Below are positions 5,084-64,000 of a DNA stretch of 64,000 bases, in pieces (positions within the stretch are counted from its first letter, which is position 1; the number at the start of each line of letters is the position of its first letter). The DNA is taken from NCBI GenBank assembly GCA_016788295.1, contig JAEUSY010000013.1:1862-65861 (forward strand), in the 5' to 3' direction. The stretch is from Flavobacteriales bacterium (lineage in GTDB: Bacteria; Bacteroidota; Bacteroidia; Flavobacteriales_F; PHOS-HE28). The position numbers were made by a program, and so were the translations under genes. The notes below the pieces were generated by a model that was given only the letters and a program-made list of their open reading frames with translations, did no database searches and was not told where the DNA came from.

Positions 5084-5086
5084 GAG

Positions 5087-5419: not shown

Positions 5420-5500
5420 GGATCCTTCCCGAGGGTTGTGTGGGAAAGGTAGAAGTGCCTTGGTTACTGAAAGGCGACCAACGTCAGTCTCGTTCGGGCC

Positions 5501-5731
5501 TTACAGGTCCCAAACGGTACGGCGCCTGCGGAAGGGCTGCTTGATGCGCTCCTTGTGCTTGAGTACGAACGCCATTACGAGATAGGCCACCAAGTGTACA
5601 CCTGCCGTGATGAAACTTAGGTAGATGAAGCTGAGGCGGACCTCCTCGGTCTTCACATTCAGCTTCTGGGCCCACCATTCGCAAACGCCGAAAGCCTGCT
5701 GCTCAAAATAGGTCTTGATACTGGCGATCAT
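5501..5731 (-). CDS. PspC-domain protein
   Basis: The GVCEWWAQKLNV...VRLSFI pattern followed by a TM helix is typical of the PspC domain. 76 aa. Confidence 0.6.
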   Translation of the reverse strand: MIASIKTYFEQQAFGVCEWWAQKLNVKTEEVRLSFIYLSFITAGVHLVAYLVMAFVLKHKERIKQPFRRRRTVWDL

Positions 5732-5755
5732 GGTCGTTCCTGTTGCGGCTGATGG

Positions 5756-19424: not shown

Positions 19425-19565
19425 GACGAAGGGTTTTCAACAAAGAAGGCGGCAAATATAGCGTTGTTGGCCTACCCCCAAAGACCGGGACGCAGATGGC
19501 ACCGGACTATCTTTGAAGCATCGTCCGAAAAGGGTGCTGACAGCCCCGAACCAATCCTGCGCAAC

Positions 19566-24988: not shown

Positions 24989-25010
24989 CTGTTGACAAAC
25001 GCACCTCGTT

Positions 25011-25046
25011 AATGAGCCCGGCCCCAGCCGGGCTCATTATTTTTGT
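25011..25046 (+). terminator. Rho-independent terminator
   Basis: AATGAGCCCGGC-ccca-GCCGGGCTCATT followed by ATTTTTG. Confidence 0.65.
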
Positions 25047-25184
25047 CATCAGGCAACCAAAACAGTCGCCGATCCATCATTCTTCCACGCGAGCTTTCCA
25101 GTGGGAGCGTGACTCCTCTCCAGGGTCTTGTTCCTAACTTGACAATTACGCACAGTCCTTCCTTCCAAGCGATCGATCTATCTC

Positions 25185-28865: not shown

Positions 28866-28883
28866 GTCCAAAAACCCTTAACA

Positions 28884-28917
28884 AGAGCGGCGACCACTGG
28901 TCGCCGCTCTTGTTTCC
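28884..28917 (+). terminator. Rho-independent terminator
   Basis: AGAGCGGCGACC-act-GGTCGCCGCTCT followed by TGTTTCC. Confidence 0.65.
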
Positions 28918-29077
28918 GACCGTTTGGGCGTTCAACAGCTGGCCCTTTGATGGCGGAAGGAAAGGTGTACTTGTCCGATCTTTGACAGTGGTCAAATAAG
29001 GATCAGTGCGCACAATGAACAGCCAGGGAACTTTTCACGGCGTTCGTGCGTCATCATCCCGACCGCACCGCTCAACC

Positions 29078-32770: not shown

Positions 32771-32789
32771 CCGGCTCGATCTTCATTGC

Positions 32790-32830
32790 GAAGGGCTGAT
32801 GGCGATCCATCGGCCCTTTTGCTTTTCGCA
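32790..32830 (+). terminator. Putative Rho-independent terminator
   Basis: AAGGGCTGATGG-cgat-CCATCGGCCCTT followed by TTGCTTTTCGC. The stem is imperfect. Confidence 0.45.
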
Positions 32831-33032
32831 TCCATTGGCTTGTTCGTGGGTGATAATCAGACGTTCGTCCAAAACACGACCGCAAAGGCGCCTAATATCC
32901 GCAAGGCTGCTATTTTCATCGCTGAACCACCCGAACGATCGTCCTTAAGGGGGTCGTCGAGAACCAACACGCAGCATGCCCCTGCGCTGGACAATATTCT
33001 TGGAACGGATATCAAGCTTGGGCTTGACCCGC

Positions 33033-36000: not shown

Positions 36001-39000
36001 ACGCCGGTGTTTACACCTACACGGTGAACGGCGTTGCGCCTTGTCCGAGCGAGAGCGCGACAGTGACGGTGACGATCAACACACCGCCTGTGCCAGGTAC
36101 GCCCGGCGCCATCACGCTGTGTTCATCGGATGCACCAGCATCGCTGCTCGCACAACTCGGTGGAACGCCTGATGCGGGAGGCACGTGGAGCGGGCCTTCA
36201 CCAGTTATTGGCGGCATGATCGACCCCGCGACGATGAACGCCGGTGTTTACACCTACACGGTGAACGGCGTTGCGCCTTGTCCGAGCGAGACCGCGACTG
36301 TGACGGTGACGATCAACACGCCGCCAGATCCAGGTACGCCCGGCGCGATCACACTGTGTTCTTCGGATGCACCGGCATCGCTCTTCGCACAACTCGGCGG
36401 AACGCCCGATGCAGGAGGTACATGGAGCGGGCCTTCGCCTGTGATCGGTGGCATGATCGATCCGGCGACGATGAACGCCGGTGTTTACACCTACACGGTG
36501 AACGGCGTTGCGCCTTGTCCGAGTGAGAGCGCGACAGTGACGGTGACGATCAACACGCCGCCAGATCCAGGCACACCCGGCGCGATCACGCTGTGTTCTT
36601 CGGATGCACCGGCATCGCTCTTCGCGCAACTCGGCGGAACGCCCGATGCAGGAGGAACATGGAGCGGGCCTTCACTAGTTGTAGGCGGCATGATCGACCC
36701 CGCGACAATGAGTGCGGGCGTGTATACCTACACGGTTGACGGTGTGGCGCCGTGCCCGAGTGAGAGCGCGACAGTGACGGTGACGATCAACACACCGCCA
36801 GATCCAGGCACACCCGGCGCGATCACGCTGTGTTCATCGGATGCACCGGCTTCGCTCTTCGCGCAACTCGGCGGAACGCCCGATGCAGGAGGTACATGGA
36901 GCGGGCCTTCTCCAGTTGTAGGTGGCATGATCGATCCTGCGACGATGGACGCCGGTGTTTACACCTACACGGTGAGCGGCGTTGCGCCTTGTCCGAGCGA
37001 GAGCGCGACAGTGACGGTGACGATCAACACACCGCCAGATCCAGGTACGCCCGGCGCGATCACACTGTGTTCTTCGGATGCACCGGCATCGCTCTTCGCA
37101 CAACTCGGCGGAACACCTGATGTCGGCGGCACGTGGAGCGGGCCTTCACCAGTTGTAGGCGGCATGATCGATCCTGCGACGATGGACGCCGGTGTTTACA
37201 CCTAAACGGTGATCGGCGTTGCGCCTTGTCCGAGCGAGAGCGCGACAGTGACGGTGACGATCAACACGCCGCCAGATCCAGGTACGCCCGGCGCGATCAC
37301 GCTATGTTCTTCGGATGCACCGGCATCGCTCTTCGCACAACTCGGCGGAACACCTGATGTCGGCGGCACGTGGAGCGGGCCTTCACCAGTTGTAGGTGGT
37401 ATGATCGATCCGGCGACGATGAACGCCGGTGTTTACACCTACACGGTGAACGGCGTTGCGCCATGTCCGAGCGAGAGCGCGACAGTGACGGTGACGATCA
37501 ACACACCGCCAGATCCAGGCACACCCGGCGCGATCACACTTTGTTCTTCGGATGCACCGGCATCGCTCTTCGCACAACTCGGCGGAACGCCTGATGCAGG
37601 AGGTACATGGAGCGGGCCTTCACCAGTTTCTGGAGGCATAATCGATCCGGCGACGATGAACGCCGGTGTTTACACCTACACGGTGAACGGCGTTGCGCCT
37701 TGTCCAAGTGAGAGCGCGACAGTGACGGTAACGATCAACACGCCGCCTGTGCCAGGTACACCCAGCGCTATCACGCTATGTTCTTCGGATGCATCGGCAT
37801 CGCTCATTGCACAACTCGGCGGAACGCCTGATGTCGGCGGCACATGGAGCGGGCCTTCACCAGTTGTAGGCGGCATGATCGATCCGGCGACGATGAACGC
37901 CGGTGTTTACACCTACACGGTGAACGGCGTTGCACCGTGTCCGAGTGAGACCGCGACAGTGACGGTGACGATCAACACGCCGCCAGATCCAGGCACACCC
38001 GGCGCGATAACGCTGTGTTCTTCGGATGCACCGGCATCGCTCTTCGCACAACTCGGTGGAACCCCTGATTCGGGTGGTACATGGAGCGGGCCTTCTTCAG
38101 TTGTAGGTGGCATGATCGATCCGGCGACAATGAGCGCGGGGATATACACCTACACGGTGGCTGGACTTGCACCATGCATGAGCGCGTCATCCACCGTCAG
38201 CATCACCATCAACACGCCATCGAACGCGGGCAACAATGGCAGTCTAACACTTTGCACGACCAGTACGGCCACATCGCTCTTCGATCAATTGGGAGGCAGT
38301 CCTCAAGCTGGCGGGACATGGAGCGGACCGAGCACTGTAACCGGCGGCATGATAGACCCGGCGACAATGAACGCGGGCAACTACATCTACATGGTGGCAG
38401 GGACTGCACCATGCCCCGACGTCGCCGCAACAGTGGCGATCGCGATCAATTCAATGCCCAACGCGGGGATCGATGGCGGCCTTACGCTCTGTTCATCGAG
38501 CCCGGCCACAACATTGATCAGCGGCTTGAACGGCACACCGGACAGTGGAGGCAACTGGACAGCACCCGGCGGTGGCGCATCGAACGGCACCTTCACTCCG
38601 GGAGTGAGCGTGACCGGCATCTATACCTACACGGTGAACGGCATAGCTCCGTGCCCTGCCGTTTCCGCGACCGTGGATGTGAACGTGGTAACGAACCCGA
38701 ATGCGGGCCTGCCCGGAAGTGTTACGCTGTGCGCTACTGATGCGGCGACCCTGCTCTTCGCGCAGCTTGGCGGAACGCCCGATGCTGGTGGCGTATGGAG
38801 CGGACCGAGCGCGGTGGTCGGCGGTTTGTACGACCCGGCCACGATGAACCCCGGCGTGTACACCTACACCATCGCTGTTCCTCCGCCGTGCGTGAACGCC
38901 AGCAGCACAGTGACCATCACCGAGATCGCACCGCCCAACGCTGGTACCGACGGCGCGCTCACCATGTGCATCAGCAGTCCGGCAACATCGCTGTTCGCGC

Positions 39001-42000
39001 AGCTTGTTGGTGGTGCACAAGCCGGTGGAACGTGGAGCGGACCTTCTCCTGTCGTAGGAGGAATGTTCAACCCAGCGACGATGACGGCGGGTGTGTACAC
39101 CTACACCGTGAGCGGTACCGCGCCCTGCCCTGCTGATCAAGCGCAAGTGACGGTGAGCGTGGTGGCCGCACCGAACGCTGGTACTCCGGGAAATGCAACG
39201 CTTTGCGCAACTGACAATGTCCTCAACCTCTTCGCGCAGCTTGGCGGAACGCCCGATGCTGGTGGCGCATGGAGCGGACCGAGCGCGGTGGTCGGCGGTT
39301 TGTACGACCCGGCCACGATGAACCCCGGCGTGTACACCTATACCATCACTGTTCCTCCGCCGTGCGTGAACGCCAGCAGTACAGTGACCATCACCGAGAT
39401 CGCACCGCCCAACGCGGGCAACGATGGCGCGCTCACCTTGTGCATCAGCAGTCCGGCAACATCGCTGTTCGCACAGCTTGGTGGTGGTGCACAAGCAGGT
39501 GGAACGTGGAGCGGACCTTCTCCTGTCGTAGGAGGAATGTTCAACCCAGCGACGATGACGGCGGGTGTGTACACCTACACCGTGAGCGGTAACGCGCCCT
39601 GCCCTGCTGATCAAGCGCAAGTGACGGTGAGCGTGGTGGCCGCACCGAACGCTGGTACTCCGGGAAATGCAACGCTTTGCGCCACTGACAATGTCCTCAA
39701 CCTCTTCGCGCAGCTTGGCGGAACGCCCGATGCTGGTGGCGCATGGAGCGGACCAAGTGCAGTGGTCGGCGGTTTGTACGACCCGGCCACGATGAACCCC
39801 GGCGTGTACACCTACACCATCACTGTTCCTCCGCCGTGCGTGAACGCCAGCAGCACAGTGACCATCACCGAGATCGCACCACCCAACGCAGGCACCGACG
39901 GCGCGATCACCTTGTGCATCAGCAGTCCTGCGACCTCGCTGTTCGCGCAGCTTGGTGGTGGTGCACAAGCCGGTGGAACGTGGAGCGGACCTTCTCCTGT
40001 CGTTGGTGGCATGTTCGATCCAGCGAACATGACCGCCGGTGTATACACCTACACAGTGAACGGAACATCGCCCTGCCCCAACGACCAGAGCATCGTGACA
40101 GTGACCGTGGTAAGCGAGCCAGACCCCGGTGGCCCCGGCTTCCTGACGATCTGCGCAACGGATGCGCCCGATGACCTCTTCAGTTACATAGAAGGCACAC
40201 CGGACCAAGGTGGCCAATGGACAACGCCAAGCGGCACAACGACCTCCGGCGTGTTCGATCCGGCTACCATGGCGTCGGGCGTATACACCTACACCATCAA
40301 CGTGCCTCCGCCTTGCGTCAGCGTGAGCAGTACGGTTACCGTGGATGTGATCACTGCACCGAACGCGGGACTGGATGGCGCAGCTATGCTCTGCCTCACT
40401 GGCGCTCCGCTCGATCTCTTCACTACGTTAGGCGGATCACCTGATGCCGGTGGGACCTGGACCACGAGCTCTGGCTTGCCGTTCAGCAGTACGTTCGACC
40501 CCGCGGTGCATTCTCCCGGCGTGTACAACTACACGGTGAACGGCATTGCGCCATGCCCAGCGGATGTTGCGAGCGTGACCATCGCGGTTACCCAACTGCC
40601 GTATGCAGGGAACGACGCGATCCTGAACCTCTGCGTTGTTGGTGATGCGGTCGATCTTTTCGGCGCATTGGGCGACGCGGATATCGGCGGCACTTGGAGC
40701 GGACCCGGTGGTGCTTCAGCAGGTGTGTTCACGCCGGGCAACAGCATTGCTGGTAACTACACCTACACCGTTGCTGGCTCGCCCCCCTGCCCGTCCGCAT
40801 CAGCCACTGTTACGGTGAACGTCTTGAGCAACGCCGACGCAGGAGGCGATGGCGGCACCACCTTGTGCGGAAGTGATGACCCATTGTCGCTCTTCGATCT
40901 GCTGCAAGGAAGCCCCGACGCAGGCGGCACATGGTTCGCTCCCGGCGGCTCCACAATGAACGGCATATTCAACCCGGCCAACAGCGCTCCGGGCGTGTAT
41001 ACCTACATCCTCTACGTACCTGCGCCATGCCAGAACGACACGGCACAAGTGGTCATGAGCGTTGTGGCCCCCGTGAGCGCAGGCACCAACGGAAACGCGA
41101 CCCTGTGCTCCAACGATTCTCCCGTCGCGCTCTTCAACTTGCTGAACGGCGCGCCGGACCTTGGTGGTTCCTGGACCGCACCGAACGGCGGCCCATCGGA
41201 AGGCAGCTTTGATCCAGGTGTTGACATGACCGGTGGCTATGTGTACACCGTCTACGCCATCGCACCTTGCACCGACCAAAGCGCCACCATAGCGCTGGGC
41301 GTGAACCCATTGCCCGATGCAGGCACCAATGGATCTGCCACGCTCTGTCCTGAAGCAGCGCCCATTTCGCTCTTTGCGCTGTTGGGTGGTTCGCCCATGC
41401 CCGGGGGCACATGGACCGGCCCCAACGGACAGCCGAGCAACGGCATCTTCGATCCGGCCAGCAGCCCACAAGGTGCATACACCTACACTGTTACCGGTTT
41501 GGCCCCGTGCCCGAACGCGATCGCCAGTTCAACGGCCACAGTATACCTCATCGCTCCGCCCAATGCAGGCCCCGATGCGGTATCCTGCACACTGGAGTTC
41601 ACGCTGAACGCCACGGGCAACTGGGCCAGCGGCACGTGGAGCGCAGCAGCCGGCATCACCTTCGGCGACAGCAATTCGCCGACGAGCACCGTTACAGCTA
41701 CCAGTGGCGGCGCATACACCTTCACATGGAGCGTGACCAGCAACGATGGCTGCGCGACGCAGGACCAGGTGACCATCACCTTCACCGATGCGATCGTGCC
41801 TGTTGTCGCCACCACCGATGCCATATGCAACAGTGCATGCGACGGTACGGCCAGTGTGCAGGCAACGGGCGGCAACGGCACCTACAGTTATGCTTGGTCC
41901 AACGGGATCGCAGGCAACACGCAAACGGCATCGAGCATCTGCGCGGGATCGTACACAGTGACCGTGCTTGATGTGAACAACTGCTCGGCAGCTGCGCCCT

Positions 42001-42788
42001 TCACCATTGGCGAACCCGTGGCACTGGTGATCGATGCCATCACTGCGGTGAACGAGACCTGCCCCGGAAGTTGCGATGGTACCATCACCATCTCCGACCC
42101 GCAGGGCGCACAATACAGCATCAATGGTGGAAGCAGCTACCAAGCGGGCGCCTCCTTTGCCAGCCTTTGCCCAGGCCAGTATGCGATCGTGATGATGGAT
42201 GGGAACGGGTGCACGGCCTCCGGGATCGCAACCATCACATCACCCGCACCCGTTACAGCCTTCTTCACGGTATCCCCGGACAGCCTTATCGCCAGCGATC
42301 CGGAAGCGCAGTTCAACAATCTTTCGAGCCCCAATGCCACGGCCTATAGCTGGGACTTTGCCGGGCTCGGCAGCAGCACGGCCACATCGCCCACCTACTC
42401 TTTCCCCGGCGTGCTGGGCGGCATTTACACCGTGTGCCTCACCGCCACCGATGCCAACGGCTGCCCCGATACCTACTGCGCCCCGGTGCAGGTCTTCGAT
42501 GCGCTGCTGGTGCACGTGGCCAATGTGTTCACGCCCAACCACGATGGCATCAACGAAGGCTTCGCGCCGGTGTTCAACATGGACTGGGCCGTGAGCGATT
42601 ACGAGTTCCTCATCTTCAACCGTTGGGGCGAACTGCTGTACGAGACCCATGTCGTGGACGAGAAGTGGAACGGCATACACGGTGGTGGTACGGTCGAGAC
42701 CGAAGTGTTCGTATGGAAGCTGCGTTGCCGCGACAAGCTCACCCGAAAGTGGATCGAGCGCATCGGGCATGTGACGGTGCTGAAGTGA
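33033..42788 (+). CDS. Giant secreted adhesin-like protein (paralog 3, about 3250 aa) with about 27 tandem 79-aa repeats and T9SS type-B CTD; reading frame interrupted by one TAA at 37203-37205
   Basis: Signal peptide MVVAMLIVLLTSGVVNGQA. CUB-like and P-domain (ICMDMEHSFMGDLIINIISPTGQ) as in paralogs 1 and 2. About 27 repeat units of the form C..D....LF..LGG.P..GGTW..P.....G..DP.....GVYTYTV.G..PCP. SprB-like repeats at 41.8-42.2 kb. CTD LLVHVANVFTPNHDGINEGF...GHVTVLK. ORFs 32976..37205 and 37209..42788 are in the same frame and differ from a continuous ORF only by TAC to TAA. Confidence 0.7.
35859..38228 (+). repeat. Ten near-identical 237-bp direct tandem repeats (coding, 79 aa each) inside the giant gene
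   Basis: The unit beginning GGTACGCCCGGCGCGATCAC...GATCAACACACCGCCAGATCCA recurs with only a few substitutions per copy at 35859, 36096, 36333 and so on, up to 37992. Confidence 0.85.
38650..40070 (+). repeat. Higher-order 474-bp (two-unit) near-identical tandem repeat, about 3 copies, inside the giant gene
   Basis: Identical peptide blocks (...PPPCVNASSTVTITEIAPPNAG... alternating with ...APCPADQAQVTVSVVAAPNAG...) recur with a 474-bp period. Spurious minus-strand ORFs 38864..39100, 39338..39574 and 39812..40048 are near-identical, which reflects the same repeat. Confidence 0.75.
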
Positions 42789-45474: not shown

Positions 45475-46152
45475 TCAGACCGCTTCGGCAGGCCCCCTTC
45501 CAAGCAACTTGACCAATGCGGTAACATGCGCCCAGAGGACCGCTGGGACCAGTATGGCAGGCAAAAGCACCCAAGGCGCAGAGATGACCAGCACGTTCGG
45601 CTGGTCGAAAGCGAAGCGCTGAACAGAGGAAGGAATGCTAAGTACGGCGGTCATAACAACGTTGACCAGGGTTAAAATGCCGATAGAATTCCAGACAACA
45701 AGGACCCAACGGCACGGCTTACGCGCCGAAAGTGACCATGCTAACAGGAATGCAGCGCTGAGTCCGATGAGAATATCGAAGTTGTGCCCGCTGTAGGTCA
45801 TACTGCGAGGTACCATCCCTTCACGATATGCTTCATGTAACACAAGTTCCACCGGTACCCGAAGGATATGAATAGCAGTAAGAGCGACCATATCGGATCG
45901 GTACAGCCAACGTCTCCCGAGGGGCCATACAATGAAAAGAAGGATACACAGCAAGGCCGGTGCCAGCAAGGCGATCTGAGGCGGGGGGAATGACGTTGTG
46001 TTCTGGTAGAAACCAATTTCCGCTAAGATCAAGTGTACTCCGCCTAGCGTGACCAATACCAGTGGAAGCCGCCAACTGTCCGTCGCCCGAGCCGTCCAGA
46101 ACAAGCACCACACAACTGCAAACCCGAAAAGCAGGTAGCTTGCTGCGCTCAT
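45475..46152 (-). CDS. Hypothetical integral membrane protein (about 6 TM segments)
   Basis: Hydrophobic helices throughout. No recognisable motif. Confidence 0.5.
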   Translation of the reverse strand: MSAASYLLFGFAVVWCLFWTARATDSWRLPLVLVTLGGVHLILAEIGFYQNTTSFPPPQIALLAPALLCILLFIVWPLGRRWLYRSDMVALTAIHILRVPVELVLHEAYREGMVPRSMTYSGHNFDILIGLSAAFLLAWSLSARKPCRWVLVVWNSIGILTLVNVVMTAVLSIPSSVQRFAFDQPNVLVISAPWVLLPAILVPAVLWAHVTALVKLLGRGPAEAV

Positions 46153-46171: not shown

Positions 46172-47884
46172 TCAGAAGGCGTACGTGGCCCCGCCCATCA
46201 ACAGCGAACGCTGCACCGGGTGCTTGTACCAGCGCTCATACTTGCTGGCGCTGAGGTTGCTGAGGTCCATGAACAGACTGAGGCGCTTGTTGTAACGGTA
46301 CTCGATACCCAGGTACAGGTCGAGGAAACCGTCCAGGTCAACCTGCTGTACAGGGTCCACGAGCTCTCCGTTCTCCAAGGGGCCGGCCACCCGGTAGGCC
46401 GGGCGCTTGCCCAGGAACTGGGCCTCGGCCTTCAGGATCAGCTTGCTGCGCATATCGTACCGCGCCATGAAGGAAAGTGCGTAGGGGGGTAGGTTCCACG
46501 CCTCCTGCTGCACTTTGGTGGCGTAGGAGTACACGTCCAACCGGGCGGTAAGCGACAATTGCTCGCTCTTGCGGTAGTTCAGTTCGCCGCTCAGGTCCAG
46601 GACATCCACCTCGTCATAAACCACGTCCATGCGGTCTCCGAAGGGCTTGTTGGGCACGCTCACGTAAAGCGGCATGTCCTCTGTGCGACGCTTGCTCACA
46701 CGCACATCGAAGCCCAGGTCGCTGCTGAAGCTGCCGCGCAGACCGGCATAGGCATCGTACATTTTACTGGAGTTGCGCAGACGCGGGGCCCCGGTAAGCC
46801 AGGGGTTCTCGCGCGTGAGGCTGCGGAAGCTGTTCCGTTGGCGCTCGCCCTCCAGACCCACATAAGGCACCAGGATGTTGTCGAACAGGCTGTAGTGCGC
46901 GTACACCTTGGGGAAGAAGTGGAAGGTGGTCTCGCCCTGCGAATCGATGTACATGCCTGCACCAACGCGGATCATGTACGGCGCTTTCCCGGTGCTTACC
47001 ATGGGCGTAAGGCCGATCAGCGTTCCGTTCTGCCTGAACTCGCCCAAGGCATCGCCCAGGTTGCCCAGGTAAGCGTTGTTATCGATCAGCAGATCGCCGC
47101 TGTAGGTCTCGCTGCCCTCGGTCTTGCTCACCGTGGCGTTCACACGCATGTTGGTCTCGCGGCTCTTGCTGAGGTTGCTGTAGCTATGCACTTCCAAGGC
47201 CACATCGTGCGCAATCTTTGAACTGTCGGTGTACAGGCTGCGCAAGCGGCCCGCGAAACCCAGGTCGTTGTAGATCTGTTTGCGGTAGTCCTCCGGCGCT
47301 TCAAGGGCGTTCAGGGCATCCTCAATGCTATCGTTGCTGGCATAGCCGTAGTAGTTGATCCGGCGACGGTCGTAGATGAACCTTCCCGATGCCTCGTGGT
47401 CCGGCAGGAAGTGCTTGTAGAACGCATCCACGTTATTGTAGCCGTAATCGCTGGGCCCCACGTCGTCCAAGCCACCGTTACTGCTGAAGTGCTTCAGGTG
47501 AAGGCCGAACCCGTTCTTGCGCGACCGGGTCTGGTCGTAATAGAGCTCCCCGAGCGGGGTGGTGTACAGACCGAAGCCTGCTTTCACATAGCCCTTGTAC
47601 AGCCGCGATTGCGGTGACATTACGCTCAGCTTGGCGGGAGCTATGCTGTCCACCTTGGCCGGGATCTCCGCCTTGGTCGGCAACAGTTCGTAGCGCACCG
47701 GCAGCTCGGGCAGAATGGTATCAATGGGCTCTGGGCGCAGATCGATCTTCGTTGCGTCCTTCAAGGTGGGGCTGTAGATGCCCTGTACCACGTACTCGTT
47801 ACCGGGGGTGGTCACCTGGGCCGAAGCGACCGCGGACAAGAGGCCCGCGGCCAGGATGAGGATGTTCTTCTTCATGGCGTTCAC
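46172..47884 (-). CDS. Putative outer-membrane beta-barrel protein
   Basis: Signal peptide MKKNILILAAGLLSAVASAQ. Alternating amphipathic beta-strand pattern. C-terminal aromatic residue (…GGATYAF). Confidence 0.55.
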   Translation of the reverse strand: MNAMKKNILILAAGLLSAVASAQVTTPGNEYVVQGIYSPTLKDATKIDLRPEPIDTILPELPVRYELLPTKAEIPAKVDSIAPAKLSVMSPQSRLYKGYVKAGFGLYTTPLGELYYDQTRSRKNGFGLHLKHFSSNGGLDDVGPSDYGYNNVDAFYKHFLPDHEASGRFIYDRRRINYYGYASNDSIEDALNALEAPEDYRKQIYNDLGFAGRLRSLYTDSSKIAHDVALEVHSYSNLSKSRETNMRVNATVSKTEGSETYSGDLLIDNNAYLGNLGDALGEFRQNGTLIGLTPMVSTGKAPYMIRVGAGMYIDSQGETTFHFFPKVYAHYSLFDNILVPYVGLEGERQRNSFRSLTRENPWLTGAPRLRNSSKMYDAYAGLRGSFSSDLGFDVRVSKRRTEDMPLYVSVPNKPFGDRMDVVYDEVDVLDLSGELNYRKSEQLSLTARLDVYSYATKVQQEAWNLPPYALSFMARYDMRSKLILKAEAQFLGKRPAYRVAGPLENGELVDPVQQVDLDGFLDLYLGIEYRYNKRLSLFMDLSNLSASKYERWYKHPVQRSLLMGGATYAF

Positions 47885-55257: not shown

Positions 55258-56388
55258 GTGCGCATGGGCGAGCACTTCCGTGGGGAAGCGATGCCGATAT
55301 TCGCCAGCATGTCGTGGACACGTACCGCACCGCTCCTTCTCTGCGCCGTGGTGGCCTTGAACGCCTGCCGCAAAGATGCCAGCAGCGATACCGACCAGAC
55401 AGGCGGACCCACAGGCCCCACGCCGCTCACGCTGCAAGTGCCCTCGTGGTCGGTGGATACAGCGCATGCGCTGAACCTGCCCTACGATAATCCGCTAACG
55501 GTGGAGGGCGTTGCGCTGGGCCGCAAATTGTTCTACGAAAAAGCACTATCGAACGACTTCAGCATGTCGTGTGCCACCTGCCACAGGCAGGAGAACGCCT
55601 TCAGCGACCCGCGGCAATTCTCAGTGGGCACCGATGGCAGCCTGGGACGCAGGCAGGGCATGGCCATCATCAACACGGCCTGGGACCACTTTTTTTTCTG
55701 GGATGCACGCGCGTTCAGCCTCGAACTACAAGCCTTTGGACCGGTGAGCAACCCCATTGAAATGGCGAACAGCTGGCCGGTGGTGGTGCAGCGCCTGCAG
55801 CAGCATCCGGAATATCCGGAATTGTTCCGAAGAGCCTTCGGCAGCGCCACCATCGACAGCCTGCACGTGGCCTACGCCCTGGCGCAGTTCGAGCGGACCT
55901 TGATCTCCTTGAACTCCCGCTTCGACCGTTACTACTACGGAGGCGATGCCACCGCATTGACCGAAGAAGAGGTCCGCGGCAAGGACCTCTTCTTCGGCAG
56001 GGCACACTGCGACAACTGCCACATGCTGCCGCTGTTCCTGGACCACGGCGTGCGCAACATCGGCCTCCCACCCGGACCCGACCAAGGGCTGGCTGAAGTA
56101 TCGGGCATTTCCGACCACCGCGGACGGTTCAAGACAACGACATTGCGCAACATTGAAGTGACAGCGCCTTACATGCACGATGGCCGCTTCGCCACGCTGG
56201 AGGAAGTGGTGGACTTCTACGCCGATGACGTGGTACTGACCACGTCCAACCTGGACCCGCACATGTTCCCGTGGGTGAATGACGAAGTACACCTCAGCGC
56301 GCAGGACCGTCTTGACCTGGTGGCCTTCCTGAAGACCCTGACCGACGAAGGTTTCCTGAACAACCCGGCCTTCAGTGAGCCCCAGTGA
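55258..56388 (+). CDS. Di-heme cytochrome c peroxidase (lipoprotein)
   Basis: Lipobox LNAC. Two heme-binding CxxCH motifs (CATCH, CDNCH). Conserved CCP/MauG-family spacing and PHF/W region. Confidence 0.85.
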   Translation: MRMGEHFRGEAMPIFASMSWTRTAPLLLCAVVALNACRKDASSDTDQTGGPTGPTPLTLQVPSWSVDTAHALNLPYDNPLTVEGVALGRKLFYEKALSNDFSMSCATCHRQENAFSDPRQFSVGTDGSLGRRQGMAIINTAWDHFFFWDARAFSLELQAFGPVSNPIEMANSWPVVVQRLQQHPEYPELFRRAFGSATIDSLHVAYALAQFERTLISLNSRFDRYYYGGDATALTEEEVRGKDLFFGRAHCDNCHMLPLFLDHGVRNIGLPPGPDQGLAEVSGISDHRGRFKTTTLRNIEVTAPYMHDGRFATLEEVVDFYADDVVLTTSNLDPHMFPWVNDEVHLSAQDRLDLVAFLKTLTDEGFLNNPAFSEPQ

Positions 56389-56447
56389 GCAAGAGACCAC
56401 TTCCAACGCTTTCGATCATATTCGCAACCCATATCCCGGACCGCTTC

Positions 56448-58634
56448 ATGTTGCGCATCATCCATCGCCTGCTGTTCTCTGCACTGCTGCTGATCACCCT
56501 TCCGCTGGCCGCACAGCAACAACTGCTGTTGCGCGATGCCGTGCTGAAAGCGGGCACCGACCTGGCCCCGGACCGCATGCGCGGCCTGCAATGGATAAAA
56601 GATGCGGCCAACTACAGCTATGTGACCAAGGAGAACGTGCTGATGCGCGGCGCCCTCGGTAAATCGATGGACGGCCCCATCACCGACCTGACCAAGCTGA
56701 ACAAACAATTCCCCGATAGCGCCCAACTGAAAGCATTTCCCGCGATCACATGGGCCGATGCCACGCACTTCCGCTTCATGCACATGCAACGGCTGTATGC
56801 GTACGACACCGGCGATGGCACAGTGAAGCCACTGACGGTGCTTGTGAGCGGCACGGAGAACGAGGATGTGGAACCGAACACGGGCGCCATTGCCTTTACC
56901 AAAGACAACGACCTCTACATCAAACGGCCCGGCGTGGGCAAGAACCTGCCAACGCGCATCACAACGGATGGCAGCGACGGGATCGTGAACGGGCATAGCG
57001 TGCACCGCCAGGAATATGGCATCACCAAGGGCACCTTCTGGAGCCCGAAAGGCAACCTGCTCGCCTACTACCGCATGGACGAAAGCATGGTAACGCCCTA
57101 CCAACTGGAGGACATCAGCACCCGGCCGAGCACTTTCAACAAGATCCGCTACCCCATGGCCGGGCAGAACAGCCACCACGTGACCGTGGGCGTGCACGAC
57201 CTGCAAACTGGCAATACCGTGGTGCTGAAGACCGACGGTGCCGCGGACGATTACCTCACCAACATCAGCTGGAGCGCCGATGAACGGTATGTGCATGTGG
57301 TACACTTGGACCGCAAGACCGAGAACCTGCGGCTGGTGCGCTACGATGCGCGCACAGGAGCAGCACTGGGCACCTTGCTCACCGAGCATGACGCCAAATA
57401 CCTGGAACCCGAACACCCGGCCCTGTTCCTAAAGAGCCGTCCGGAACAATACCTGTGGATAAGTGACCGCAACGGCTGGGACCACGTGTACCTCTACGAT
57501 GCGAAGAAAGGCCTGGTGCGCCAGCTGACCGATGGTGCTTGGAACGTGAAAGGGTTCATTGGACTGGACCCGCAGGAAGGAACTCTTTACCTGGAAGGCA
57601 CGGGCACCATTGTACCCGGCAACCCGGTGGGCGCCACTGAAACGCACCTCTACCGCGTGGAGCTGGCCAGCCGCAAGACCCAACGCCTCACCACCGAACC
57701 AGGGACACACCACGGCATGCTGAGCTACGATGGCACGGTGCTGATCGACAACTGGAGCAGCACCACCGTACCGGGCCGGATCGAGCTGCGCGATGCACGT
57801 ACTGGAGCCACCACCAAGACCCTGCTGAACTCGCGCGATCCGCTGAGCGGCTACACCGTGGGCACCATCGAGACCCTGAACATCCTGGGCGAGAACGGTG
57901 ACCGCTTGGTCGCACGCATGATCAAGCCGAGCAACTTCAACGAGAAACAGAAATATCCCGTGCTGATCTACGTATACAACGGTCCGCACGTGCAGTTGAT
58001 CACCAACTCCTTCCTGTCCGGAGCATCTCATTGGATGCTGGAAGCCGCAGAGCGCGGATACATCGTGTGGACCGTGGACGGGCATGGCAGCGGCAACCGG
58101 GGCAAGGCCTTTGAACAGGCCATCCATCGCCAACTGGGCATCACAGAGGTGAAGGACCAGATGCGTGGTGTGGAATTCCTGAAGAGCCTGCCCTATGTGG
58201 ACGGAGACCGGATCGCGGTGCACGGCTGGAGCTTCGGCGGCCACATGACCACCGCCATGCTCACGCGCCATCCCGGCGTGTTCAAAGTGGGTGTGGCCGG
58301 CGGCCCGGTCATGGATTGGGGCCTCTACGAAGTGATGTACACCGAACGCTACATGGACACCCCGGCCGAGAACGCCGATGGCTATGCGGCCACCGCACTG
58401 CCTCCCATGGCTGATAAACTGCAGGATGATCTTCTACTGATCACCGGCGGCGCCGATGATGTGGTGCTACCCCAGCACAGCCTGTCATTCATCAAGGCAT
58501 GCGTGGCGAAGAACATCCCCGTGGATTTCTTCGACTACCCCGGCCATGGTCACAATGTGCGTGGCAAGGACCGGCTGCACCTCATGGAGAAAGTATTGCG
58601 CTATATCGATGCGCGCATGCTTCCCCAACGATGA
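56448..58634 (+). CDS. S9 family peptidase, dipeptidyl-peptidase IV-like
   Basis: Signal peptide MLRIIHRLLFSALLLITLPLAAQ. DPP-IV beta-propeller region. Catalytic GWSFGG, and the D/H region (ITGGADDVV, GHGHN). Confidence 0.85.
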   Translation: MLRIIHRLLFSALLLITLPLAAQQQLLLRDAVLKAGTDLAPDRMRGLQWIKDAANYSYVTKENVLMRGALGKSMDGPITDLTKLNKQFPDSAQLKAFPAITWADATHFRFMHMQRLYAYDTGDGTVKPLTVLVSGTENEDVEPNTGAIAFTKDNDLYIKRPGVGKNLPTRITTDGSDGIVNGHSVHRQEYGITKGTFWSPKGNLLAYYRMDESMVTPYQLEDISTRPSTFNKIRYPMAGQNSHHVTVGVHDLQTGNTVVLKTDGAADDYLTNISWSADERYVHVVHLDRKTENLRLVRYDARTGAALGTLLTEHDAKYLEPEHPALFLKSRPEQYLWISDRNGWDHVYLYDAKKGLVRQLTDGAWNVKGFIGLDPQEGTLYLEGTGTIVPGNPVGATETHLYRVELASRKTQRLTTEPGTHHGMLSYDGTVLIDNWSSTTVPGRIELRDARTGATTKTLLNSRDPLSGYTVGTIETLNILGENGDRLVARMIKPSNFNEKQKYPVLIYVYNGPHVQLITNSFLSGASHWMLEAAERGYIVWTVDGHGSGNRGKAFEQAIHRQLGITEVKDQMRGVEFLKSLPYVDGDRIAVHGWSFGGHMTTAMLTRHPGVFKVGVAGGPVMDWGLYEVMYTERYMDTPAENADGYAATALPPMADKLQDDLLLITGGADDVVLPQHSLSFIKACVAKNIPVDFFDYPGHGHNVRGKDRLHLMEKVLRYIDARMLPQR

Positions 58635-58675: not shown

Positions 58676-59296
58676 ATGAAACAACTCGTTACTCTTCTTT
58701 TCTGCGTGCCCTTCCTGGCACAGGCCCAAGTGATCCACAACGTGCAGGTGGGCGGCAGCACCGCGGGTGGAACCCCTCCGTTCTACAACCCACAGAACCT
58801 CACCATCAGCGTGGGCGATATCGTGCGCTGGACGAACACTTCGGGCACGCACAACGTGAACGGCAACACGTCGTTGTTCCCCGCCAATCCACAGAGCTTC
58901 AGCTCAGGCAATCCGCAGAGCGGTGGATGGACCTTCGAGTTCACCTTCACCATTGCCGGTGTGTACAACTACCATTGCACCCAACAAGGGCACTCGGCCA
59001 CGCAGTTCGGCAGCATCACCGTCCTTAACCCTACTGTTGTCGAAGAGAATTCACAGACCGAGGACATCCTGCTCTTCCCTGTGCCTGCCAATGACCAACT
59101 GACCGTGCTCTTCGGCACCCAACGTGTGGACCGCGCTGAGCTGATCGCACTGGATGGACGCACCATGCTTTCGGTGAACACCGCCGGCACCGACCGCGCC
59201 GTGCTGGCCACAAGCGCGCTCTCCTCCGGCCACTACATGCTGCGTCTCTACACGGCTGAAGGGACGATGATCAGCCGCGCGTTCTACAAGGACTAA
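58676..59296 (+). CDS. Cupredoxin-like (blue-copper) protein with T9SS type-A C-terminal sorting domain
   Basis: Signal peptide MKQLVTLLFCVPFLAQA. Cupredoxin-like ligand region GTHNV...YNYHCTQQGH. C-terminus ILLFPVPANDQLTVLF...SGHYMLRLYTAEG matches Por_Secre_tail. Confidence 0.65.
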   Translation: MKQLVTLLFCVPFLAQAQVIHNVQVGGSTAGGTPPFYNPQNLTISVGDIVRWTNTSGTHNVNGNTSLFPANPQSFSSGNPQSGGWTFEFTFTIAGVYNYHCTQQGHSATQFGSITVLNPTVVEENSQTEDILLFPVPANDQLTVLFGTQRVDRAELIALDGRTMLSVNTAGTDRAVLATSALSSGHYMLRLYTAEGTMISRAFYKD

Positions 59297-59300
59297 GGGC

Positions 59301-60515
59301 TCAGGGTGTACGCACTACCCGCACCACCTCGCGGTGGCCGGGGCGATCGAGCACCACGGCGTAGGTGCCGGGTGCCACACCCTCCAACGGAATGCGGAAG
59401 GCCTGCTTGCCCGGTGCGAGCAGGCCTTCGTGCATCAGGGCCACTTCGTGACCAAGTGCATCAACAAGGGCGATGCGGACACGGTTGTGTTCAGTGGTCT
59501 CCACCCAGAGCGTGCTGCTGGCTTCCGTTGGGTTGGGATAGGCCGATAGCCTGAACAGGGGCGCGATGGTCATCTGCTCCACACCTTGCGGGACCTCCAC
59601 AGGCACGGCCAATGTGGCCAATCCGCCAACAGCCAGCTTGGCCAGCTTCTCGAAATACGGCACATCGAAATATTCCACCCTGTCGTTCGGCGTGTGATAG
59701 TAGGGATTACCATCGTTGCCGAAATCCTCGATCACCAGAACGGCACCATAGCCCTCGTTCCAAAAGGAGGCATGGTCGCTGTAGGTGGCGCCGGGGTTGG
59801 TCAGCACCAGGTCCAGATCAATGTCGTAGTGGGCTTTCACAGCAAACAGCGTATCGCCGATCTCAAAGGAGTTGCCCACGGGACGCACGTGCACACGGGC
59901 CCGTTTATCGCCATTACCATCCCATGCGATGGCATCCATATTGATCACACCCCTTAATAGCTCGTCATTGCTGGCAAGACCTGCTGCCTGATAGGCACTT
60001 CCAACAAGGCCCTGCTCCTCCTCATCCCAAAGCGCGAAAATGATGGTGTGCTCGAACTGAACATCGTGCAGTACACGGGCGGCCTCCAACAAAGCGGCCA
60101 CTCCGCTCCCATTGTCATCTGCCGCAGGGGCGGCTACATTGCCACCGGGCATGGCATCGTAGTGCGCACCAAGGATCATGGGGTACGCACCCGGCACGGT
60201 GCCCGGCTTCGTGACCAGGATGTTCTTTCCGGAACTGCTCCACATTTGAACCGTGGGCGTGTAGCCGAACTGGGTAAGCTTGCGCTCAAGCCAGGCCTGT
60301 GACAAGGCATTGCCTGCGTTGTTCTTGTGCCGGCTCACTATGGTCTCAGGACCAGCGCCAAGATCGATAGGCACCTCGCCTGTGAGCTCGTTGACGTACA
60401 CCATCATCGAGTCGATGCGCATGGCATCGAGCACGGCCTGCACAACGGGGTTCTGGGCAGAGACCGCCAATACGGTCGACAACGAAATACCGAGGGCGGC
60501 AGCACGGAGCATCAT
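59301..60515 (-). CDS. M28 family Zn-aminopeptidase with T9SS type-A C-terminal sorting domain
   Basis: Signal peptide. M28 metal-binding motifs (GAHYDAMPG, DDNGSGVAALLE, WDEEEQGLVGS, YHTPNDR). C-terminus RLSAYPNPTEASSTLWV...PGTYAVVL. Confidence 0.8.
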   Translation of the reverse strand: MMLRAAALGISLSTVLAVSAQNPVVQAVLDAMRIDSMMVYVNELTGEVPIDLGAGPETIVSRHKNNAGNALSQAWLERKLTQFGYTPTVQMWSSSGKNILVTKPGTVPGAYPMILGAHYDAMPGGNVAAPAADDNGSGVAALLEAARVLHDVQFEHTIIFALWDEEEQGLVGSAYQAAGLASNDELLRGVINMDAIAWDGNGDKRARVHVRPVGNSFEIGDTLFAVKAHYDIDLDLVLTNPGATYSDHASFWNEGYGAVLVIEDFGNDGNPYYHTPNDRVEYFDVPYFEKLAKLAVGGLATLAVPVEVPQGVEQMTIAPLFRLSAYPNPTEASSTLWVETTEHNRVRIALVDALGHEVALMHEGLLAPGKQAFRIPLEGVAPGTYAVVLDRPGHREVVRVVRTP

Positions 60516-60554
60516 GCCTCAAATGTAGCCAAGCGCCCGTGGCACCGCAGTACC

Positions 60555-62549
60555 CTAAAGCACCACCACCCGCTCCACGAAGTTGCGCGATGCAGTGCGC
60601 ACTACCACCAGATACGTGGCACTTCGCTGGGGCAAGGTCATCTGCCAGTTGCGCGCACCGCTGGGTACGTACTTGGCCACGGATGCACCCTTCATATCGA
60701 ACACCTCGATACCAGTAATGCGGTCGCTAATGCCTTCTATCCGCAATTGGCCATCACGTACCGGGTTCGGGAAGATCCGCACACCCAGTTCGCGCAGGTC
60801 ATCAATATTCACCGACAGGTCCGTGAGCTCCACTTCCTTCACCAGTACCGGAGTGCCATCCGCAGCTTCGAACATGGTGCGGAACGCATCGATCTCAGGC
60901 GTGTTGAACGCGAACATTTCCTCCATCCAGCGCGGCGGTGCACTTTGGTACCACACCTTGGCGGTAATGGTGATCAGTCCCGTGTAGCCGTTCATGGGTA
61001 CCTGGTAGTGAACGATGTCGGTGCCACTTCCCTCGGTGCCGTTGACATAACGGTTGAAATCAACATCGGTACCCGGCACACCAGCGATCACCGTGGTATC
61101 GTAGCTCAGGTGGCTGGTGGAGAAACCCAATGGGGCCAGACGATTATCCTTCAGCGGGGTCTTGGCGCGCTCCAACACGGTGGTCTTGTTGTTGTTCACA
61201 TCGCCCATCACCATTTCATAGATCTGCGCCTGATCGGGCGATGTGATCACATCGTGGTGCGGCTCCCAGTCCTCGTCATGGCCCACCACCTCGTACGTTG
61301 GGTCCCAATTGCCACTGCGGAAGAGCGTATTTCCCGCCGCATCGCGGACATGCAGTTCAACGAACGCACGCCGAGCCGGATAGCCCGATGGGAATTTGTG
61401 ACCGGCCAGGTTGGTCAGCTGCACATCAATGGAAGCGAGATCGGCGGAACGGTCCACCACGGTGGCATCCAATAACAAGGTGTTCTGCTGAAGCAACTGC
61501 TCGGTCCAGGTAATGGAGCTGTCGAACTGGGCACTGGTGGCTTTAAGGCCCAAGGCCGTGCTGTTCTGCTGCAACAGTTTCAGCATGAAGCTGTTTCCCC
61601 CTACCATTTGGTGCAGCCCATATGGCGAACGATGGAAATCCGGGTTCGTCACCAGGAAGTCGTACAAGGCACTAATGGCGATGCCTTCATAGAGGCGCGG
61701 CATGTGACACCCCTGGCAAGTCACGCCGTTCTCGGGATCAGCATCCGTGTTGAAAGAGGAATTGAGCCACTCATGATAGGTGGCCTGTTCCACGAAGTGA
61801 TCACCGGTAAGGTTGCCTTCCAGATCGGCGGTCTCGGTGATCAATGTGTGGCAGCCCGCACACAGGCCGGCCCGTGTAACGTGCGCACCATACACGGGAT
61901 CATATCCGACAAAATTCGACATGGGCGCACCGAACAGGTTCTCTGCATCGTAGGGTCCATAGACCACGTTGTTCGTATCGAACTTCAGTGCTCCGGAGAA
62001 GATCAGCCCTGCACTGTCGGCCCCTTGCATGTGGCACGCCAGGCAGCTCACACCATCGAGCGCCAAGGGGTCCTGCTCCATTTCGGCAATGCTGTAGTGC
62101 CCGCCGTTGCTCAGGAACTTGTCATAACGGCCCAAGGGAGCATGACACGAGGTGCACTTGTCCTCCAGCCCGGCCTGATGCCCTGGGTTCACGGACACCT
62201 CATGACTCACTTTGGCGCGCCAGAAGGGATCCTTGGCCGAATTACCCATCATTGATGAGCGCCATTGGTCGGCGGGGTTCACATCGACACCCGCTGCAGT
62301 GCGGTTCGCGTAGGGGAAGGTCTCGTCCTTTCCATGGCAGCCGCTACAGTTCCCACTTGCCACGAAAAAGTTATTGGTCCCGATCGGCAGATCAAGTCCT
62401 GCTCCACGGAACTCCTCCAGTTCCTGTGCGCTGTGGTAGGCATGCGCATTGGGCACACGACCATTGGTCCAAGCAACAAAAAGCCCCACGGTACCAAGCA
62501 CTCCGAAGAGAATGGCGGCCTTGGAAGCGAGCGTAAAAGACTTCAACAT
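60555..62549 (-). CDS. Pentaheme c-type cytochrome with T9SS type-A C-terminal sorting domain
   Basis: Start placed at MLKSFTLASKAAILFGVLG (signal/TM segment), coordinate good to about 1 nt. The upstream 179 aa of ORF 60555..63086 are read-through into the neighbouring gene. Five CxxCH motifs (CSGCH, CTSCH, CLACH, CAGCH, CQGCH). C-terminus RIFPNPVRDGQLRIEGI...TYLVVV. Confidence 0.75.
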   Translation of the reverse strand: MLKSFTLASKAAILFGVLGTVGLFVAWTNGRVPNAHAYHSAQELEEFRGAGLDLPIGTNNFFVASGNCSGCHGKDETFPYANRTAAGVDVNPADQWRSSMMGNSAKDPFWRAKVSHEVSVNPGHQAGLEDKCTSCHAPLGRYDKFLSNGGHYSIAEMEQDPLALDGVSCLACHMQGADSAGLIFSGALKFDTNNVVYGPYDAENLFGAPMSNFVGYDPVYGAHVTRAGLCAGCHTLITETADLEGNLTGDHFVEQATYHEWLNSSFNTDADPENGVTCQGCHMPRLYEGIAISALYDFLVTNPDFHRSPYGLHQMVGGNSFMLKLLQQNSTALGLKATSAQFDSSITWTEQLLQQNTLLLDATVVDRSADLASIDVQLTNLAGHKFPSGYPARRAFVELHVRDAAGNTLFRSGNWDPTYEVVGHDEDWEPHHDVITSPDQAQIYEMVMGDVNNNKTTVLERAKTPLKDNRLAPLGFSTSHLSYDTTVIAGVPGTDVDFNRYVNGTEGSGTDIVHYQVPMNGYTGLITITAKVWYQSAPPRWMEEMFAFNTPEIDAFRTMFEAADGTPVLVKEVELTDLSVNIDDLRELGVRIFPNPVRDGQLRIEGISDRITGIEVFDMKGASVAKYVPSGARNWQMTLPQRSATYLVVVRTASRNFVERVVVL

Positions 62550-62691
62550 GGGATCTACTTGCAGGTTGCCCGCAATGTACAGCAAGCGGTAACAGCGCTG
62601 CTGACCAACATCAGCGACATCCTCGCAACCCCGGAACAAAAAAGACCCGACCGAGGTTCGGCCGGGTCTTTCAACTTGATTCTTTAAAGGC

Positions 62692-63296: not shown

Positions 63297-64000
63297 TCAG
63301 GTCTTCTGTTTCCGCTTGCGTGCCGCCGGAAAGAGGATGTTGTTCAGGATCAACCGGTATCCGGCCGAGTTGGGATGCAGGCTCAGGTCGGTGGGCGGAT
63401 CGCCTACCATGTGCTGATAGTCCTCCGGGTCGTGGCCCCCAAAAAAGGTCCACTGGCCCAGGCCGAACTCACCATGGATGTATTTCACAGTGCCCTGCGC
63501 CTTGTTCTCGCCCATCACCGTTACGCCGGGTTTCACCAGGCTTTTACGGAATGCCGTGGTCTGGCCCATGAAACCACGCACCACCTGCTCATGGCTTTGG
63601 CACAGCATGGTGGGCACGATGTCCCACTTCGCGCTGAAATCGAACAGCGTGAAGAAGTCGCGCATCTGCCCGATGTTGGCATGCAGATCCGTCGCATCGA
63701 TGTTGCTGAACTCGTACACATTGGGGTCGGTCACCAAGCGGAAATCACGGAAGGCGAACGTTCGCCCGAAGTCGATGTGCTGCTGTGCCGCGGGATCAAT
63801 GGGGTCGTGATCGAACTCGGGGGTGCAGATGTCCACACCTTCGGCGGCCAAGGCAATGTCATAACTGTCCGTACCTGAGCACATGGTGAAGAGGTAACCG
63901 CCACCGGCCACGTAATCGCGGATCTTCAAGGCAACGGCCAGTTTCATCTGGCTCACCTTCGCGAAACCCAGCGACGCGGCCATAGCCTCGCTTTCGCGCA
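63297..64000 (-). CDS. Hypothetical protein, C-terminal part (gene continues past the window end)
   Basis: ORF open to the window edge. No confident family assignment. Possibly a class-I amidotransferase-like fold (GGGYLFTMCSG); this is only a guess. Confidence 0.35.
   Translation of the reverse strand, partial: RESEAMAASLGFAKVSQMKLAVALKIRDYVAGGGYLFTMCSGTDSYDIALAAEGVDICTPEFDHDPIDPAAQQHIDFGRTFAFRDFRLVTDPNVYEFSNIDATDLHANIGQMRDFFTLFDFSAKWDIVPTMLCQSHEQVVRGFMGQTTAFRKSLVKPGVTVMGENKAQGTVKYIHGEFGLGQWTFFGGHDPEDYQHMVGDPPTDLSLHPNSAGYRLILNNILFPAARKRKQKT

Follow-up and report, generated by a model that had tools for sequence, protein, structure and literature searches.

A pentahaem cytochrome of the c552/MccSep fold with a type IX secretion sorting domain in Flavobacteriales: a candidate extracellular electron relay

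Two proteins of known structure combine an N-terminal helical domain carrying five CxxCH motifs with an immunoglobulin (Ig)-like β-sandwich. One is c552 of Thermochromatium tepidum (PDB 5ZE8), a low-potential, soluble pentahaem cytochrome of about 435 aa with no known function. The other, MccSep (PDB 9WT8), is a proven enzyme, a polysulfide reductase in which a five-haem helical cap sits on an Ig-like stem; haem 2 has His122 and Cys239 as its ligands, and the catalytic selenocysteine, Sec325, lies on a D-G-U-P loop of the Ig domain. MccSep is periplasmic, as are, by prediction, 97% of its homologs (bioRxiv 10.1101/2025.11.18.688581). Here we describe a relative of these proteins, a 664-aa pentahaem c-type cytochrome that ends in a type-A C-terminal sorting domain (CTD) of the type IX secretion system (T9SS). 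It is encoded at 60555-62549, on the minus strand, of a 64,000-nt stretch of contig JAEUSY010000013.1 from a Flavobacteriales bacterium (PHOS-HE28). This whole stretch is called the window below, and all positions are those of the window unless another locus is named.

The cytochrome has exactly five CxxCH motifs, as the first-pass annotation of this DNA had stated: CSGCH, CTSCH, CLACH, CAGCH and CQGCH, at 62334-62348, 62142-62156, 62031-62045, 61848-61862 and 61704-61718 (coordinates verified by translation; this and the other features of the gene are on the minus strand). All five are invariant in 68 aligned homologs. The protein begins with a predicted signal peptide for the general secretory (Sec) pathway, MLKSFTLASKAAILFGVLGTVGLFVAWTNGRVPNAHA (aa 1-37, 62439-62549), recognized as a hydrophobic N-terminus with an AHA motif; signal peptides of the window proteins were assessed by eye, and inspection showed comparable hydrophobic N-termini in the cytochrome homologs. 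An AlphaFold2 model made with the 68-sequence alignment (pLDDT 92.3, pTM 0.84) has an α-helical five-haem domain (aa 55-356, 61482-62387), and the model and alignment together define an Ig-like β-sandwich with a family-specific extension (aa 357-577, 60819-61481). The CTD (aa 591-664, 60558-60779) follows.

The best Foldseek match of this model was 5ZE8 (E=5.7e-17, TM 0.70), and a profile of the 68 family members searched against the PDB likewise ranked 5ZE8 first (E=4.5e-12) and also found MccSep (9WT8, E=1.7e-8). Like c552, the cytochrome has its five CxxCH motifs in an N-terminal helical domain that is followed by an Ig-like β-sandwich, and by eye the two have in common the motifs W-x3-M-[H/M], H-x-M-G-G and H-x-x-P-[ST]-G-x-P. 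The cap-and-stem form is also that of the Geobacter multihaem selenoprotein MccSep/ExtKL (GSU2937-2936), with an hhalign probability of 96% over the region of haems 3-5. Having both the helical cap with five CxxCH motifs and the Ig stem with an H-x-x-P-x-G-x-P loop, the cytochrome is a member of the c552/MccSep-ExtKL superfamily. There are clear differences, however. The window protein is only 16% identical to c552, which lacks a CTD, and compared with c552 it has some 100-150 aa of extra β structure containing an invariant histidine (H431), a Glu-Gln pair of its own (E254-Q255), and Met101 in place of a c552 histidine. MccSep for its part is a periplasmic homotetramer of Desulfobacterota and Nitrospirota, whereas the window protein has a secretion tag and comes from Bacteroidota.

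Does the family then share the chemistry of MccSep? Its most conserved motif, G383-H384-K-F-P387-S-G-Y390-P391-A-R393-R394, is an invariant loop of the Ig-like region (GHKFPSGYPARR, 61368-61403). In an alignment with the two solved relatives this loop (GHKFPSGYP) falls on NHAGHSIPDG-U-PT of MccSep and on PHAMPTGAPFRN of c552, with Tyr390 at the position of Sec325. Across the family this residue is Y in 35, F in 22 and I in 8 of the 68 sequences. MccSep Cys239 aligns, in a low-confidence segment, to the variable position 251, which is His here and T, E or H in the family. Because the haem-ligating Cys239 and Sec325, both catalytic, are missing, the cytochrome cannot use the MccSep mechanism. 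Assignment as an MccSep-type polysulfide reductase was accordingly rejected, on the absence of both equivalents. The ExtKL model NF040886 matches 65 of the 68 family members, all below its cut-off (24.7 bits vs 250 for the window protein). Judged by these residues, the family has the fold of MccSep and not its chemistry.

Candidate distal haem ligands, as read from conservation, are M101, H313, H384 and H431. The three histidines are the non-motif histidines that are invariant in the 68 sequences, and M101 is present in 64 of them. The family motif W-R-S-S-M-M101 can be matched by eye to W-K-G-S-M-H of c552 and W-E-Q-S-I-H74 of MccSep, suggesting that Met has replaced His as one of the distal ligands; HMMER aligned this segment differently. 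Another methionine, M210, is invariant but is probably not a ligand, because MccSep has a Met at the corresponding position and none of its haems is described as Met-ligated. Within the five-haem domain E254, Q255, E260, W261 and S264 are family-specific invariants, and E254-Q255 form an insertion beside the position of MccSep Cys239.

The evidence for the CTD comes from family models and from structure. The first-pass annotation had assigned CTDs to three adjacent genes, those of the cytochrome, of an M28 aminopeptidase (59301-60515, minus strand, 404 aa) and of a type-1 cupredoxin (58676-59296, plus strand, 206 aa). With TIGR04183, the NCBIfam model of the type-A sorting domain (cut-off 23 bits), this was borne out for the cytochrome (31.5 bits) and the cupredoxin (30.5 bits), but the M28 protein fell just short (21.6 bits, E=1.6e-4); on the YPNP...GTY...VVRVVR features of its sequence, the M28 CTD is probable. 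PF18962 (cut-off 27 bits) scored below threshold for all three proteins, at 26.7, 19.8 and, for the cytochrome, 19.7 bits. The roughly 75 C-terminal residues of the modelled cytochrome superpose on the RemA CTD as bound within the Flavobacterium T9SS translocon (8GL6_D and 8GL8_D; TM 0.80, rmsd 1.8-1.9 Å, Foldseek) and also match HBP35, a T9SS cargo protein of P. gingivalis (5Y1A). Moreover, in most of the 80 best Bacteroidota loci the alignment with the window protein reaches residues 662-664, that is, through the CTD. The CTD of the cytochrome is thus real, and it makes T9SS export to the surface or the medium a reasonable inference; the protein is probably displayed outside the cell. The presence of a T9SS in this organism is implied by five further predicted T9SS cargo genes in the window, with CTDs of type A or type B.

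The family, as yet unnamed, is very large. A search scoring 8000 candidates gave 3115 hits at E <= 0.001, an exhaustive search gave 2770 clusters at 50% identity, and a peptide scan matched at least 596 GTDB species-level genomes. The best relatives are all from uncultured Bacteroidota, known as metagenome-assembled genomes (MAGs), of Flavobacteriales and then of Saprospiraceae and Lewinellaceae; the closest, in JBEICT010000047.1, is 89% identical. Named members from other phyla belong to Chloroflexota/Anaerolineales, Deferrisomatales and Phycisphaerae and are annotated only as hypothetical protein or multihaem cytochrome. The sorting signals alternate: of 129 cluster representatives that are full-length and have five haems, 34 end in a CTD and 42 contain a lipobox, and in no case do the two occur together. 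The CTD is the signal of the Bacteroidota members; in other phyla many members have a lipoprotein signal in its place. Since members carry either a CTD or a lipid anchor, the family would be extracytoplasmic and tethered to a membrane or the cell surface. The fold (5ZE8, 9WT8) and the role of the CTD as a sorting signal were already known. What is new is their combination, a large sub-family that lacks the MccSep catalytic residues and has its own invariant motifs and an extra β domain, and the alternation of CTD and lipoprotein signal. This defines a large sister family to MccSep and c552, set apart by a change from His to Met at a probable haem ligand, by the absence of Cys and Sec, and by an invariant Glu-Gln pair. 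These differences are testable and offer structural biologists a concrete target.

In a few representatives the cytochrome core is fused to other domains. P0183/P0404 (locus L093, 8001-10826), from Phycisphaerae, with 9 cluster members and at least 22 contigs, joins a PQQ (pyrroloquinoline quinone)-type sugar dehydrogenase (GSDH) to the core. P0227/P0413 (L094, 8001-11429), from a lineage other than Phycisphaerae, consists of GSDH, an F5/8-type-C (discoidin) domain and the core. P0210 is a fusion of the core with a class-I cytochrome c domain, and P0202 one of TauE with the core. The dehydrogenase fusions are the strongest functional clue: because the core is fused to an enzyme that needs an external electron acceptor, it would be expected to accept and relay electrons extracytoplasmically. 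There are precedents for such a division of labor. The c-type cytochrome domain of Cellvibrio Cbp2D reduces lytic polysaccharide monooxygenases (LPMOs) (PMC8981238), and a fungal PQQ-dependent pyranose dehydrogenase (PDH) carries a cytochrome domain (PMC5960967). P0183 and P0227 match this Cbp2D/PDH-type layout of a dehydrogenase, with or without a carbohydrate-binding-type domain, and a cytochrome, a likeness that we infer from rare fusions in other phyla. In such systems a secreted cytochrome receives electrons from extracellular sugar dehydrogenases, or is fused to them, and hands the electrons on to outside acceptors. Cbp2D and PDH are functional analogues only, their folds and haem types (mono-haem c or haem b) being unrelated. 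It is of note that the layout of GSDH, discoidin domain and core recalls the fungal enzymes made of a dehydrogenase, a cytochrome and a carbohydrate-binding module. In another locus (L085, 7153-9761) a TauE/SafE anion-exporter gene and the core gene overlap by 4 nt, at the start of the latter; just upstream of the TauE gene is a gene for a fusion of Lactamase_B (metallo-β-lactamase fold) and rhodanese. The TauE and rhodanese context makes a sulfur link possible for part of the family.

What might the window cytochrome do? The reading that we prefer, at about an even chance of being right, is a T9SS-exported pentahaem protein of the cell surface that acts as electron acceptor or relay for extracytoplasmic redox enzymes. 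The pre-protein would be exported by Sec, and the five haems would be attached in the periplasm. The folded holo-cytochrome would then be translocated by the T9SS, lose its CTD and be either anchored on the surface or released. Outside the cell it would take electrons from extracytoplasmic redox enzymes or small reductants and pass them to an external acceptor. If it is indeed exported as a holo-cytochrome, the T9SS could deliver redox proteins with covalently attached haem to the surface of the cell. Export would also mean that Flavobacteriales and Saprospiraceae MAGs, including those from activated sludge and lakes, have in common a conserved extracellular redox protein, with a bearing on the turnover of iron, humic substances and polysaccharides. 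The cytochrome gene merits experimental work.

Several points weigh against this preferred reading. Gene structure, domains, homology, fold, CTD, fusions and the lack of conserved neighbors were observed directly, whereas haem loading, export, surface location and the direction of electron flow are all predicted from them. Fusions to a PQQ dehydrogenase are seldom seen (in 2 of 150 representatives, none of them in Bacteroidota), a GSDH gene is nearby in just 1 of 82 Bacteroidota loci, and there is no LPMO or PQQ dehydrogenase near the window cytochrome gene. Finally, 38 columns are invariant across phyla, including the charged or polar E254, Q255, R393 and R470, and K385, R394, K467 and D468 are kept in at least 90% of sequences. 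For a simple wire such conservation is uncommonly high, and it suits an enzyme active site no less well. Since conservation offers just four candidate ligands and the protein has five haems, one of these may have an open site and be catalytic.

An alternative, possible although we hold it with limited confidence, is therefore a surface or secreted multihaem enzyme in which one haem would have an open or labile distal site. By homology this would be haem 2, the active-site haem of MccSep. The putative site would be lined by Glu254-Gln255 together with K385, R393 and R394, and the substrate that it would reduce or oxidise would be small, extracellular and probably anionic or of peroxide type. 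The very high cross-phylum conservation of non-haem residues speaks for an enzyme. So does the supply of distal ligands, with only three invariant non-motif histidines and M101 to serve five haems if M210 is discounted, and so does the fact that the E254-Q255 insertion adjoins the place of the MccSep haem ligand Cys239. MccSep itself shows that the fold can support catalysis (bioRxiv 10.1101/2025.11.18.688581), and the core has TauE, from a family of anion exporters, as its fusion partner in P0202 and as an overlapping gene in L085. On the other hand, the open-site argument comes from sequence alone, no activity is known for c552, the nearest relative with a solved structure, and the Sec-equivalent position is not catalytic because Y, F or I is tolerated there. 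The relay and the enzyme are compatible with each other.

The relay reading can be extended, with a good deal less confidence. In Flavobacteriales and Saprospiraceae the surface pentahaem cytochrome might be the hub of a redox chain outside the cell, separate from the respiratory chain, in which secreted dehydrogenases, for example PQQ sugar dehydrogenases, would supply electrons to Fe(III), quinones or humics, copper enzymes such as LPMOs, or the co-secreted cupredoxin. We regard this as unlikely. Such a chain, if real, would give bacteria a multihaem equivalent of the cytochrome system of fungal cellobiose dehydrogenase (CDH) and PDH and would be the first T9SS-dependent route of extracellular electron transfer (EET).

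The first-pass annotation had offered a more specific model, in which the cupredoxin, the cytochrome and an upstream di-haem cytochrome c peroxidase (CCP)/MauG-family lipoprotein (55258-56388, plus strand, 376 aa) make up a T9SS-delivered module for respiratory EET or for Fe/Mn redox reactions. An extracellular redox role is plausible, but we found no specific support for respiratory EET or metal reduction, and the module is improbable. In its favor, two of three adjacent CTD genes encode redox proteins, secreted multihaem cytochromes of Bacteroidota in wastewater MAGs have been flagged as possible EET proteins, with T9SS unmentioned (PMC11495043), and PtdA, a reported c552 homolog, adjoins a porin in marine MAGs (bioRxiv 10.1101/2023.11.21.568154). 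Our literature search found no paper that links the T9SS to multihaem cytochromes.

Comparison with known EET proteins counts against the module. MtrC, OmcA and MtrF of Shewanella resemble the window cytochrome in concept, being multihaem c-type cytochromes on the outer face of a Gram-negative cell, but they have ten haems in two pentahaem domains and a four-domain staggered-cross architecture, are lipoproteins exported by the type II secretion system and work with an MtrAB-type conduit. The window protein has none of these features and carries a T9SS CTD instead. The comparison with MtrA, OmcA and HAO that had been suggested did not connect the cytochrome to any of them: TIGR03507 (OmcA/MtrC) gave 24.7 bits against a cut-off of 209.3, and no HAO or NrfA family model matched at E <= 0.01 in Pfam and NCBIfam scans. 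A marginal pass was obtained only with the generic PF22113 (MtrC domains II/IV; 32.7 bits, cut-off 30), a weak domain-level match that can be put on the side of the module. Membership of the decahaem MtrC/OmcA group was rejected, given five haems rather than ten and the low TIGR03507 score. Membership of the NrfA or HAO families was likewise rejected, on model scores and haem count; a CxxCK motif is present in none of 150 family representatives, and the PDB search gave NrfA chains only at borderline significance (E about 6e-5 or weaker), with alignments confined to short CxxCH stretches. Nor is there a porin-cytochrome conduit or a periplasmic multihaem partner in the window or in the flanks of 82 related loci; a motif scan of the window showed that the only other gene with CxxCH motifs is that of the CCP. 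The MAGs that carry the cytochrome are of Flavobacteriales and Saprospiraceae, which are mainly aerobic heterotrophs.

Gene order argues in the same direction. CCP, a DPP-IV (dipeptidyl peptidase IV)/S9 peptidase (56385-58634, 749 aa) and the cupredoxin are on the plus strand and the cytochrome and M28 genes on the minus strand, so that the supposed redox cluster is really two convergent units. Synteny was examined by tblastn of the window cupredoxin, M28, DPP-IV, CCP, MurB and DUF5606 proteins against 84 related loci. Cupredoxin, M28, DPP-IV and CCP genes are beside the cytochrome gene only in L001-L019, the loci whose cytochrome has an identity of 57% or more, and even there the cupredoxin is absent from L012-L016 and L019 and the CCP from L012, L014, L016, L017 and L019. 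In the 65 Bacteroidota loci where cytochrome identity is 51% or lower, none of the window neighbors was found. De novo clustering of all open reading frames (ORFs) within 6 kb gave no neighbor family present in more than 16 of 82 loci; the sole recurrent one that is not housekeeping is an FG-GAP/ASPIC-UnbV T9SS cargo protein with a type-A CTD (14 of 82 loci, for example L034 2321-5044). Eight loci outside Bacteroidota, Deferrisomatales and Anaerolineales included, have heterogeneous contexts and no common redox partner. The cupredoxin family is also far narrower than that of the cytochrome, with about 119 hits against 3115. Because synteny is lost beyond close relatives and the families are so unequal in size, cupredoxin and cytochrome cannot be obligate partners, and a conserved redox operon was rejected. 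The cytochrome is a stand-alone gene, and its neighborhood is lineage-specific synteny, a synteny accident. Three adjacent CTD genes are in any case unremarkable in this genome, since the window is rich in T9SS cargo.

Least probable of all is an ordinary periplasmic cytochrome with a spurious or non-functional CTD match, for although MccSep and nearly all its homologs are assigned to the periplasm and PF18962 scores below cut-off, TIGR04183 is above its own, the modelled CTD superposes on a translocon-bound CTD and on HBP35, the match spans the CTD in most of the best Bacteroidota loci, and outside the phylum the CTD is so often replaced by a lipobox, never coexisting with it.

The genes named in the first-pass annotation are all present where it had placed them (ORF map and family scans, with translations re-checked), and its domain calls were correct. 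The stop codons of the cupredoxin and M28 genes are 4 bp apart. M28 is downstream of the cytochrome gene on the same strand, after a gap of 39 bp. On the other side, between the DUF5606 (DUF5606/DUF6852) gene and the cytochrome gene, sequence reading and folding identified an intrinsic terminator (62635-62668, minus strand), a 15-bp GC-rich stem followed by a U-run (-26.3 kcal/mol, z=-3.6; none of 200 shuffles was as stable). Because this strong terminator lies upstream, the cytochrome gene opens its own transcription unit. A consensus scan missed the terminator, and a σ70 promoter scan was uninformative, as expected for Bacteroidota. In two phyla the cytochrome gene has an aminopeptidase gene right next to it in the same orientation, that of M28 downstream here and that of M29 upstream in Anaerolineales (L090-L092, about 4800-5975); this is probably a coincidence.

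Turning to the neighboring proteins, the cupredoxin scores above cut-off with PF00127 (33.2 bits) and has its CTD at 59072-59293. Alignment to plastocyanin and amicyanin gives the type-1 copper ligands H59, C101 and H106 with Gln110 as axial ligand, a set conserved in 10 orthologs. By these ligands the protein fits the type-1 (blue) class and is predicted to bind copper. Gln110 in place of the axial Met of plastocyanin makes this a stellacyanin-like site, with the motif C-x4-H-x3-Q. The 119 hits of this family are all of about 206 aa and have a CTD, and where source names are given they are all Flavobacteriales or Bacteroidota MAGs. The M28 peptidase matches PF04389 (E=4.8e-31) and has its CTD at about 59304-59540; the peptidase between CCP and cupredoxin matches PF00930 (E=2.4e-73) and PF00326 (E=7e-49). 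The CCP matches PF03150 (E=1.8e-54) and has two CxxCH motifs and a lipobox-like ALNAC, in agreement with its earlier description as a di-haem lipoprotein; with TIGR04039 it scores 273 bits, below the cut-off of 363. L001 (16132-18322) and L003 (16151-18268) have a tandem pair of CCP/MauG paralogs in place of the single gene of the window.

The rest of the window is ordinary chromosome, with gyrB, secDF, type III glutamine synthetase, RF-1, pyrF, mdh, murB and glycosyltransferase genes. One of its further T9SS cargo genes (19513-21858) encodes an FG-GAP protein with a type-A CTD, 38 kb from the cytochrome gene. A run of five large PKD/P-domain/SprB-repeat proteins (423, 1226, 1254, 1409 and 1859 aa) occupies 23717-42788 on the plus strand; four of the five have type-B (CHU_C) T9SS signals, and an ECF (extracytoplasmic function) sigma factor gene (23038-23712) is just upstream of the array. 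The 1409-aa ORF (32976-37205) has no CTD match and the 1859-aa ORF starts 4 nt after it, so both may belong to a single adhesin gene of about 3270 aa that is split or misassembled. Two minus-strand ORFs of 225 and 570 aa (45475-46152 and 46172-47884), between gyrB and the gene of a 1039-aa TPR (tetratricopeptide repeat) protein, have coding-like GC3 and no Pfam match. An ORF that runs off the end of the window (63297-63983, minus strand) likewise has no Pfam match. It corresponds to a 431-aa protein in L001 (7962-9257) and is unusually conserved, at 79-96% identity across related loci vs about 50-70% for neighboring genes.

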